From Escherichia coli (GTDB lineage: Bacteria > Pseudomonadota > Gammaproteobacteria > Enterobacterales > Enterobacteriaceae), in NCBI RefSeq assembly GCF_050320075.1, contig NZ_CP190018.1: a stretch of 64,000 bases of DNA. One strand, 5' to 3'. Positions 31,965 to 33,095 of the stretch are shown piece by piece. Each line of letters opens with the position of its first letter. Within the stretch, counting starts at the first letter, position 1. Both the position numbers and the translations under genes were made by a program. Under the pieces are notes generated by a model that was not told the DNA's origin, ran no database searches, and saw nothing but the letters and a program-made list of their open reading frames with translations.

Positions 31965-33095
31965 ATGACCGGACGTAAAAACAAATGCGTCAGAAAAAAT
32001 TGTAACAATCAGGTTTTCTCAGTAAAAATGGCAGTGGAGAAAAGACTGTGCAGAAAACATTATGAGAGGTTTTGTGAGCTCAAAAAAAGAAGAGAGCAAA
32101 ATCCTGTTCACAGATTAAATGAAGCATTGCCAAGAAAGATAAAAGGACCCAAAAGTAAGAAAAAATTAGTAAAAGAAAGAGAAATCATTAACAGCAGGAA
32201 GAAACATAAACAGGAGCAGGGACCATCGCTGGTTGAACTTAATAAAAAAGTTCGTGAGATACTGAAAACTCCGGCATGGAGAACGCTGGAAACGAGAATT
32301 CGAAGAAACGGTATCACATTTAAATCAAAAGCAGAGTTAGATGTACTTTCTGAACTTTATGCAATTTATTCATGGGTTTCATATTGCAAACGGAGCGATA
32401 ATTATTCTGTGTGGTTTTTGAATTGTCCGGATGTAAATATAAATCTTCATGTGTGCGAATGCAGGTCTTCTGAAAGCGATTGTTATCTACCATCCCGTTT
32501 TATTATTCTTCCAGCTCCATTAAGGCAAAAAGCAAAAAGAAAATACCCTGCTAATTCGTCTGGAGTGTCAGGATATAGTGATTCAAAAAGTCTTTATAAG
32601 ACTGTTTTGTCTGTTTGTGGTGGGAAAAGAGAAACCGAATTGTTCTTTTATTCACTGCCAGTAAAGACTAATCATCATCCTTACTGGATTAAAAGTGGTG
32701 TGGTTAAAAGATTTCCGCCTATTTTTGGCTTGTTGTTTTATGAACAGGAAAGGTTAACAGGAGGTGTTTTTCGTTATGTGTTGATAAAGTTTTATAATGC
32801 TTTTAAGGAGAATTTGTTTTTTGTTGAGATTATCTCGTGCTGTTTTCTTGTTGAGTTTTTTCATGATATTGATTCATTTTTTATAAATCAACGATTAAGT
32901 AAGTTGGAAATTTTTATAGATAAGTGGAGGGAGGGTAAAGAAATCTGGATAAAAGCATATCTACAACTGATACATAATGCATTGGGAATAACTGAAACAG
33001 AAAAACTCGTCAATCTATATAATTCATTTTTTACTGATAAAGTGGTTCTCTGGGATGAATCAGTAAAAAAAGTTAAGTGGATTTATGAGAAATAG
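31965..33095 (+). CDS. Hypothetical protein (376 aa), basic Cys/His-rich N-terminus, AT-rich
   Basis: ATG at 31965 with GGAG upstream; N-terminal CVRKNCNNQ...CRKHYERFC; no family recognised. Confidence 0.5.
   Translation: MTGRKNKCVRKNCNNQVFSVKMAVEKRLCRKHYERFCELKKRREQNPVHRLNEALPRKIKGPKSKKKLVKEREIINSRKKHKQEQGPSLVELNKKVREILKTPAWRTLETRIRRNGITFKSKAELDVLSELYAIYSWVSYCKRSDNYSVWFLNCPDVNINLHVCECRSSESDCYLPSRFIILPAPLRQKAKRKYPANSSGVSGYSDSKSLYKTVLSVCGGKRETELFFYSLPVKTNHHPYWIKSGVVKRFPPIFGLLFYEQERLTGGVFRYVLIKFYNAFKENLFFVEIISCCFLVEFFHDIDSFFINQRLSKLEIFIDKWREGKEIWIKAYLQLIHNALGITETEKLVNLYNSFFTDKVVLWDESVKKVKWIYEK

Follow-up and report, generated by a model that had tools for sequence, protein, structure and literature searches.

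Genomic islands of the CP4-57/SRL type are among the commonest accessory elements of Escherichia coli, Shigella and Klebsiella, and they carry toxin-antitoxin, anti-restriction and defence cargo. CP4-57, CP4-6 and CP4-44 of E. coli K-12 and the SRL island of Shigella have the same backbone set, which consists of a YfjP/YeeP GTPase, DUF932 (YfjQ), antirestriction (YfjX) and RadC (YfjY) proteins, a YeeU/CbtA-type toxin-antitoxin, YfjJ and AlpA. Hypervariable master regulators acting at divergent promoters are known from the lambda-type cI/Cro immunity regions and, as Stl, from SaPI. Here we describe a gene found at positions 31965–33095 (plus strand) of a 64,000-nt stretch of E. coli DNA (contig NZ_CP190018.1; hereafter the window), which is a backbone component of a CP4-57/SRL-type island, not cargo, and which sits in a cassette that is exchangeable between islands. 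In CP4-57 of K-12, rnlAB and yfjKLM cargo presumably takes the place of this gene between yfjJ and yfjP. In the SRL island, the open reading frames (ORFs) between AlpA and the GTPase have been listed as having 'no similarity' (PMC6980539). What was already known about the gene is an annotation as 'hypothetical', solely under which it appears in thousands of genomes, while its architecture and its cassette polymorphism are new and undescribed.

The gene is an ATG-to-stop ORF that encodes a 376 aa protein of 44.6 kDa with an isoelectric point (pI) of 9.7, represented in RefSeq by the hypothetical protein WP_072660960.1. Its boundaries and length are exactly those given in the preliminary description of the window, which had been made from the bare sequence and had also noted a good ribosome-binding site, a divergent YfjP-like GTPase gene, and a codon and base composition unlike that of the core genes. 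These observations hold, as a Shine-Dalgarno sequence, AGGAG, can be read at 31952–31956, 8 nt upstream of the ATG, and the 294 aa gene on the minus strand matches MMR_HSR1 and Dynamin_N. The GC content of the gene is 0.338 versus about 0.50 in the adjoining kilobases; GC at third codon positions (GC3) is 0.28 versus 0.55 in the GTPase gene, and rare codons account for 42 of 376 positions versus 8 of 294. Low GC, numerous rare codons and the lack of any known domain would be expected of a chance open frame or of a decaying remnant in H-NS-silenced AT-rich DNA, but several lines of evidence speak against a non-functional ORF. The probability of 376 stop-free codons at the base composition of the gene is about 4e-15, and the longest open frame in 1000 shuffles of the cassette had a mean of 83 and a maximum of 196 codons, compared to 385 observed; in the other frames of the region the longest ORF is 69 aa. 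The region is 100% identical to E. coli W2-5, in which the ORF is annotated as a coding sequence (CDS) for WP_072660960.1. Among 5426 complete E. coli genomes, 462 carry the ORF, at full length in 458 cases (99%) and always annotated as an intact CDS; the copy of CFT073 is C_RS21510. Across five alleles of 80–100% identity, the ratio of nonsynonymous to synonymous substitutions (dN/dS) is 0.19–0.43, well under 1, with zero indels and an excess of third-position changes. Full-length homologues at 26–37% identity are found in other genera, and the AlphaFold model is confident. The artefact of AT-rich sequence lacking conserved homologues that the preliminary description had envisaged is thus not what was found, since homologues were recovered and purifying selection acts on the gene. 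The non-functional reading is effectively refuted: the ORF is a genuine, selectively constrained gene.

The family to which the gene belongs is small. A HMMER search of 1.84 billion representative proteins, together with a word-indexed search of 5.8 billion, returned no more than this family, the full-length members of which are the homologues at 26–37% identity mentioned above; their named hosts are Klebsiella pneumoniae, K. oxytoca, K. aerogenes and Atlantibacter, and a profile search added Enterobacter hormaechei. All these relatives are labelled 'hypothetical' and display no Pfam domain. No relative was found in phage genomes or among IMG/VR viral contigs, while plasmids contributed a single record with a family member; the family is therefore neither phage-borne nor plasmid-borne. 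The statement that no family could be recognised, made from the sequence by eye, withstood the database searches. Pfam-A returned no family for the protein at E values up to 10, and only scattered chance matches for 11 members; NCBIfam gave no match to the protein, and searches of PDB sequences with single sequences and profiles gave nothing. The single match in PHROGs (E = 0.1) is not significant, and PADLOC-DB v2 returned no family for the protein, for two further alleles described below (407 and 316 aa), for the family member P0033, for the Klebsiella homologue or for a 262 aa partner protein.

The gene lies within an AT-rich exchangeable allelic cassette of 1.65 kb (31857–33507) comprising the 5' untranslated region, the gene itself and 412 nt of 3' sequence, as defined by blastn breakpoints against islands that carry a 407 aa or a 316 aa allele. 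The breakpoints are the same in all three allele classes, at 31855–31857 on the left and at 33507/33508 on the right, and the flanks are 97–99% identical across islands on the left and about 89–90% on the right. Sequences flanking the gene match about 1800–1880 E. coli genomes, far more than the gene itself does, and the slot then holds other genes. At least three deeply diverged homologous forms of the cassette (376, 407 and 316 aa) thus occur in islands that are otherwise about 90–99% identical. The 407 aa allele (WP_001107221.1, 976 genomes) is homologous to the 376 aa protein over its full length (hhalign probability 99.5%, E 7e-23) at about 18% identity and has a diverged finger, while the 316 aa allele (WP_000157734.1) has neither the N-terminal finger nor the linker described below, its body being homologous to that of the 376 aa protein (94.7%, E 6e-8). 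Across allele classes the cassette proteins are 14–18% identical; both alternative proteins share the locus, the orientation and the cassette boundaries of the window gene and are as basic. The 376 aa type is present in 8.5% and the 407 aa type in 18% of E. coli genomes, and one or other of these main alleles is found in at least 26% of the complete genomes. The gene GC is 0.34 in the 407 aa allele and 0.43 in the 316 aa allele; it is 33–36% in family members with flanking sequence versus 46–58% upstream, and 0.41 in P0026, which lies on a contig devoid of flanks. Neither the 3' portion of the cassette nor the gap beyond it has small ORFs with a conserved product. The combination of a cassette with sharp boundaries and swappable, diverged alleles is new here. 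In E. coli AVS0753 (L022:2230–3965), the 316 aa homologue is accompanied by a convergent, overlapping gene for a 262 aa basic protein that has no Pfam or PADLOC match, and the pair looks like a two-gene module.

Within the island the gene occupies a fixed position. The 294 aa gene to its left (30896–31780, minus strand) is a YfjP/YeeP-type GTPase, as indicated by its MMR_HSR1 and Dynamin_N matches, which agree with its RefSeq annotation as a GTPase. It is the first gene of a leftward backbone operon that continues with a WYL-HTH regulator, a hypothetical protein, DUF905, DUF932, antirestriction, RadC/JAB, DUF987, CbeA and CbtA, some of which are absent in some lineages. The gene under study is divergent from the GTPase gene at a distance of about 90–185 nt in six lineages out of the seven for which flanks are available, the exception being L012, where the WYL regulator adjoins it at 335 nt. 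Wherever downstream sequence is available, genes for AlpA and for YagK/YfjJ (REP_ORF2-G2P) follow in the same orientation, and variable cargo, including type I restriction-modification, an Mrr-type nuclease and other defence genes, sits beyond the AlpA/YfjJ-like genes. This position is consistent across E. coli (all three allele classes), Klebsiella, Enterobacter and the loci of the family members P0021 and P0033. The gene would be the first one transcribed rightward from the compact divergent control region, the other arm of which would drive the operon that runs from the GTPase gene to CbeA and CbtA.

The protein displays three parts. At the N terminus, a CCCH zinc-finger module (aa 5–54; 31977–32126) has C8, C13, C29 and H32 as candidate ligands and is followed by a helix and an R-I-N..P-R tail. 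The N terminus reads KCVRKNC...KRLCRKHYERFCEL and follows the pattern KCVRKNC-x15-C-x2-HYxRFCEL. Among 17 family sequences of 13–95% identity, at least 90% retain C8, C29 and H32, and C13 is kept in nearly all finger-bearing sequences, the exceptions being P0018, which has Ser, and P0048, whose N terminus is unrelated. The 465 aa family member P0033 (L010:8587–9984) contains two tandem copies of the finger, whose gap-free alignment spans 55 residues and shows the C, C, C and H positions to be invariant; as the module has been duplicated as a whole, it is an independent unit. P0033 also bridges the 376 aa and 407 aa subtypes, with 30% identity to the latter over 411 residues. The second part, a Lys/Arg-rich linker (aa 55–96; 32127–32252), carries a net charge of +11 over 42 aa and is predicted to be disordered, the predicted local distance difference test score (pLDDT) being below 50 at residues 59–84. 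The third is the family-defining alpha/beta body (aa 97–376; 32253–33092), whose first half is basic and which has conserved W105, Y135, P183, R263 and E288 residues and a Y352-N353-S-F356 motif. When the window allele is compared to an allele of 80% identity, omega is 0.06 in the finger, 0.62 in the linker and 0.26–0.37 in the body. The pI is 9.6–10.0 in all family members, the finger-less allele included; in the window protein, positive charge clusters in the finger and linker and in the first half of the body.

AlphaFold, run with the alignment of 17 sequences, gave a model with an overall pLDDT of 79.6 and a predicted template modelling score (pTM) of 0.69, in which the finger is formed by a beta-hairpin and helices (pLDDT about 90) and precedes a disordered linker, while the body is largely helical and includes two small beta elements. 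The preliminary description had seen in the N terminus a zinc- or nucleic-acid-binding module, followed by a lysine-rich stretch and a hydrophobic-aromatic C-terminal half. Residues 55–100 indeed hold 16 Lys and Arg, and 25 Phe, Trp or Tyr are found among the last 126 residues. The impression of a binding module gains from the conservation of the ligands, the omega of 0.06, the pLDDT of about 90 and an in-register alignment to a phage finger, albeit at a probability of 46%; zinc binding by the finger and nucleic-acid binding by the protein are what we infer from these features. A THAP-like C2CH finger was considered and rejected, as the spacing between the second and third cysteines is 15 residues here and Pfam gave no match; in THAP domains this spacing is 35–50. 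An integral membrane protein was likewise rejected. The best 19-residue window (284–302; Kyte-Doolittle 1.79) holds three acidic residues (E288, E297 and D301), the first of which is invariant, and AlphaFold packs this stretch as a buried internal helix of a bundle; on both counts the protein is not a membrane protein.

A motif similar to that of the finger occurs at the N terminus of actinophage HNH endonucleases, which prompted a direct comparison. The motif consensus matches 144 phage records, examples of which have an N-terminal CX4C-x8/9-CxxHYxR[WF] finger, unmodelled by Pfam, followed by HNH_3 and a weak AP2 domain. In the phage HNH_3/AP2 endonucleases of Aeromonas phage AsXd-1 (AXC33133.1) and of the Mycobacterium prophage prophiGD20-1 (gp72), the finger has the same N-terminal position and the same order of ligands as in the protein of the window, and shares with it the motif (R/K)x(L/M)CxxHYxR(F/W). 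When the finger profiles were aligned with hhalign, the four ligands were in register, with a probability of just 46% and a pairwise E of 2e-4 over 25 columns, the phage profile being built from 3 sequences. The two fingers also differ, since the loop between the second and third cysteines has 15 residues in our protein versus 8–9 in the phage finger, whose trailing GDP motif is missing here, and the HNH_3 and AP2 domains are absent from the protein and from all its relatives. A search with the finger profile by itself recovered just fragments of the same family and no other architecture. The likeness favours DNA binding and is a resemblance, homology not being established.

The region between the two divergent genes (31781–31964) was studied by alignment of seven lineages and by analysis of repeats and RNA folds. 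A block, GGTAATAT (31837–44), is conserved in all lineages, Klebsiella included, and contains a -10-like TAATAT at 31839–31844, about 12 nt before the left cassette breakpoint. If TAATAT were the rightward -10 element, the cassette would begin near the transcription start; the conserved minus-strand TATATTAC could equally be the -10 element of a GTPase promoter. Inverted repeats are found at 31805–12/31820–27 (inner) and 31770–85/31822–37 (outer), the outer one spanning the GTPase start codon. The leader of the GTPase gene (31765–31850, minus strand) can fold into a long hairpin that pairs the start codon in the version of the window, while in Klebsiella and two other lineages the hairpin pairs the Shine-Dalgarno sequence instead, from a different primary sequence. 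The minus-strand RNA folds have z values of -2.6 to -6.2 in four lineages, and compensatory changes are seen in 4 of 16 consensus hairpin pairs in an alignment of six sequences, which amounts to partial covariation. The hairpin could control translation or serve as an operator at the DNA level. A scan of positions 29000–37000 with Rfam gave chance-level matches only.

On the other side, the cassette is followed by a conserved non-coding region of about 1.07 kb (33508–34575) and by a Rep-like backbone gene of the YagK/YfjJ 'inovirus Gp2 family' (REP_ORF2-G2P; 34576–35307, plus strand; PF11726 5.5e-37, PF23343 1.3e-9). A 1.48-kb query covering the gap matches about 1880 of the 5426 E. coli genomes at 76–100% identity, usually over just the non-coding part, and the matching DNA is almost always unannotated. 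Three iteron-like 23-nt direct repeats (TACACGTATTTT...) lie at 33637–33659, 33673–33695 and 33697–33719; three occurrences of the pattern in the window compare to 0.03 expected, and islands of every cassette class have them in the same position. The non-coding stretch could be an origin, a site resembling an origin of transfer (oriT) or a long leader. As both are AT-rich, the cassette and this region are likely H-NS targets. Some E. coli islands have an extra gene inserted in the gap before the Rep-like gene (L015:4844–5374 and L023:5286–5816, minus strand), coding for a 176 aa hypothetical protein (WP_001413264.1/WP_000778605.1) that has no Pfam or PADLOC match.

The reading we favour, though tentatively and with less than even confidence, is that the protein is a nucleic-acid-binding, allele-specific control or specificity factor of the island. 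Contacts to nucleic acid would be made by the finger and linker and by the basic half of the body, and the protein might act as a switch-type regulator of both divergent transcription units, perhaps with the neighbouring Rep/iteron region also under its control. By analogy with the diversity of repressors in related phages and satellites, the divergence of the alleles would then define functional types of island. Speaking for this reading are the constraint on the gene, the conserved and duplicable finger with its likeness to that of the phage endonucleases, the high pI of every member, the fixed backbone position, the left breakpoint just past the conserved GGTAATAT block, the homology of the three allele forms, and the lack of matches to defence models and of a phage- or plasmid-borne distribution. 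The likeness to cI/Cro and Stl consists in the position at a divergent control region and in deep allelic divergence between similar elements; a switch regulator of the cI or Stl kind would be expected to have a helix-turn-helix, and Pfam detected neither that nor any other recognised regulator domain in the protein and its relatives. Several further observations weigh against this reading. No fold relative of the body was found that would tie it to regulators, and the literature holds nothing on the protein, nor any family model or structure. At the putative rightward promoter the -35 element is poor, and a consensus scan does not pick this promoter up. No operator that co-varies with the type of finger was found, the 376 aa and 407 aa alleles sharing their upstream DNA, and the finger is absent (316 aa) or strongly diverged (407 aa) while the flanking control DNA is 97–99% identical; a model in which the finger recognises the flanking operator therefore cannot hold for all alleles. 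Finally, hypervariability, AT-richness and location on a mobile element fit a gene engaged in genetic conflict equally well.

That alternative, which we hold to be less probable than a control factor, would make the protein a stand-alone defence against phages or plasmids, an abortive-infection protein or else an anti-defence protein, with the variable N-terminal finger or linker sensing or binding foreign nucleic acid and the body being a new effector. The deep divergence of alleles within conserved flanks, the low GC in all lineages except on the P0026 contig, the patchy presence of both main alleles and the gain, loss or doubling of N-terminal modules would all be in keeping with it, as would a neighbourhood rich in anti-restriction, toxin-antitoxin and restriction genes and the resemblance of the 316 aa allele with its convergent neighbour to a two-gene system. 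Yet neither an allele nor the partner gene has a PADLOC match, no enzymatic motif or effector-like fold was found, and the gene keeps a fixed backbone slot by a control region while recognisable defence cargo lies beyond the YfjJ-like gene; besides, nearly all copies of it are intact, and this would be uncommon for a toxic effector that has no visible partner. Rather unlikely in our estimation is a hitherto unrecognised hypervariable specificity module of new fold, in which swappable N-terminal fingers and a diverging body might sense particular invading or helper elements (phage or conjugative plasmid) in order to switch the island on, or might themselves form a single-gene defence or anti-defence system. 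The weakest of these candidates, and an unlikely one, is an accessory protein of DNA processing that would recognise a sequence on the island, be it the origin, an oriT-like site or the iterons upstream of the Rep-like gene, and aid replication, excision or mobilisation. Zinc-finger accessory proteins do assist relaxases and Rep proteins, and the protein is very basic, its finger resembles a module of phage homing endonucleases that act on DNA, and its gene lies directly upstream of the iteron-like stretch and the Rep-like gene and in the same direction of transcription as AlpA, which controls excision. In keeping with this reading, the 10 kb to the left and right of the family member show no integrase gene in the Klebsiella loci (L002–L005), in L010 or in L017. 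However, islands whose cassette proteins share less than 20% identity (14–18%) have a non-coding region and a Rep gene conserved at about 90%, which would not be expected of a site-specific partner; Klebsiella is devoid of the long non-coding region, AlpA following directly, and no nuclease, relaxase or primase motif was found in the protein or its relatives.

Being constrained and yet hypervariable, and placed exactly where the island would be controlled, this backbone gene naturally suggests itself as a switch or a specificity determinant, and might explain the coexistence of several such islands in one genome. Since it has no Pfam model, literature or fold relative, its characterisation would define a new protein family; were the defence or anti-defence reading true, about a quarter of E. 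coli genomes would possess a single-gene system of a new kind.

In Klebsiella the element, from CbtA through UCP030791, is just about 9–10 kb long and lies between ordinary chromosomal genes. The window contains no tRNA gene. At about 38360–38710 (L001:26561–26911), an H-NS-family nucleoid-associated protein is annotated in RefSeq in the same degenerate island, among insertion sequence fragments, and may bear on the AT-rich cassette and non-coding region. The island has two items of defence-type cargo. Just past the Rep-like gene, 35635–36513 encodes a 292 aa Mrr_cat restriction endonuclease, and the opposite extremity of the island (about 22302–23174) encodes a 'phosphorothioated DNA-binding restriction endonuclease' beside a truncated HNH gene.

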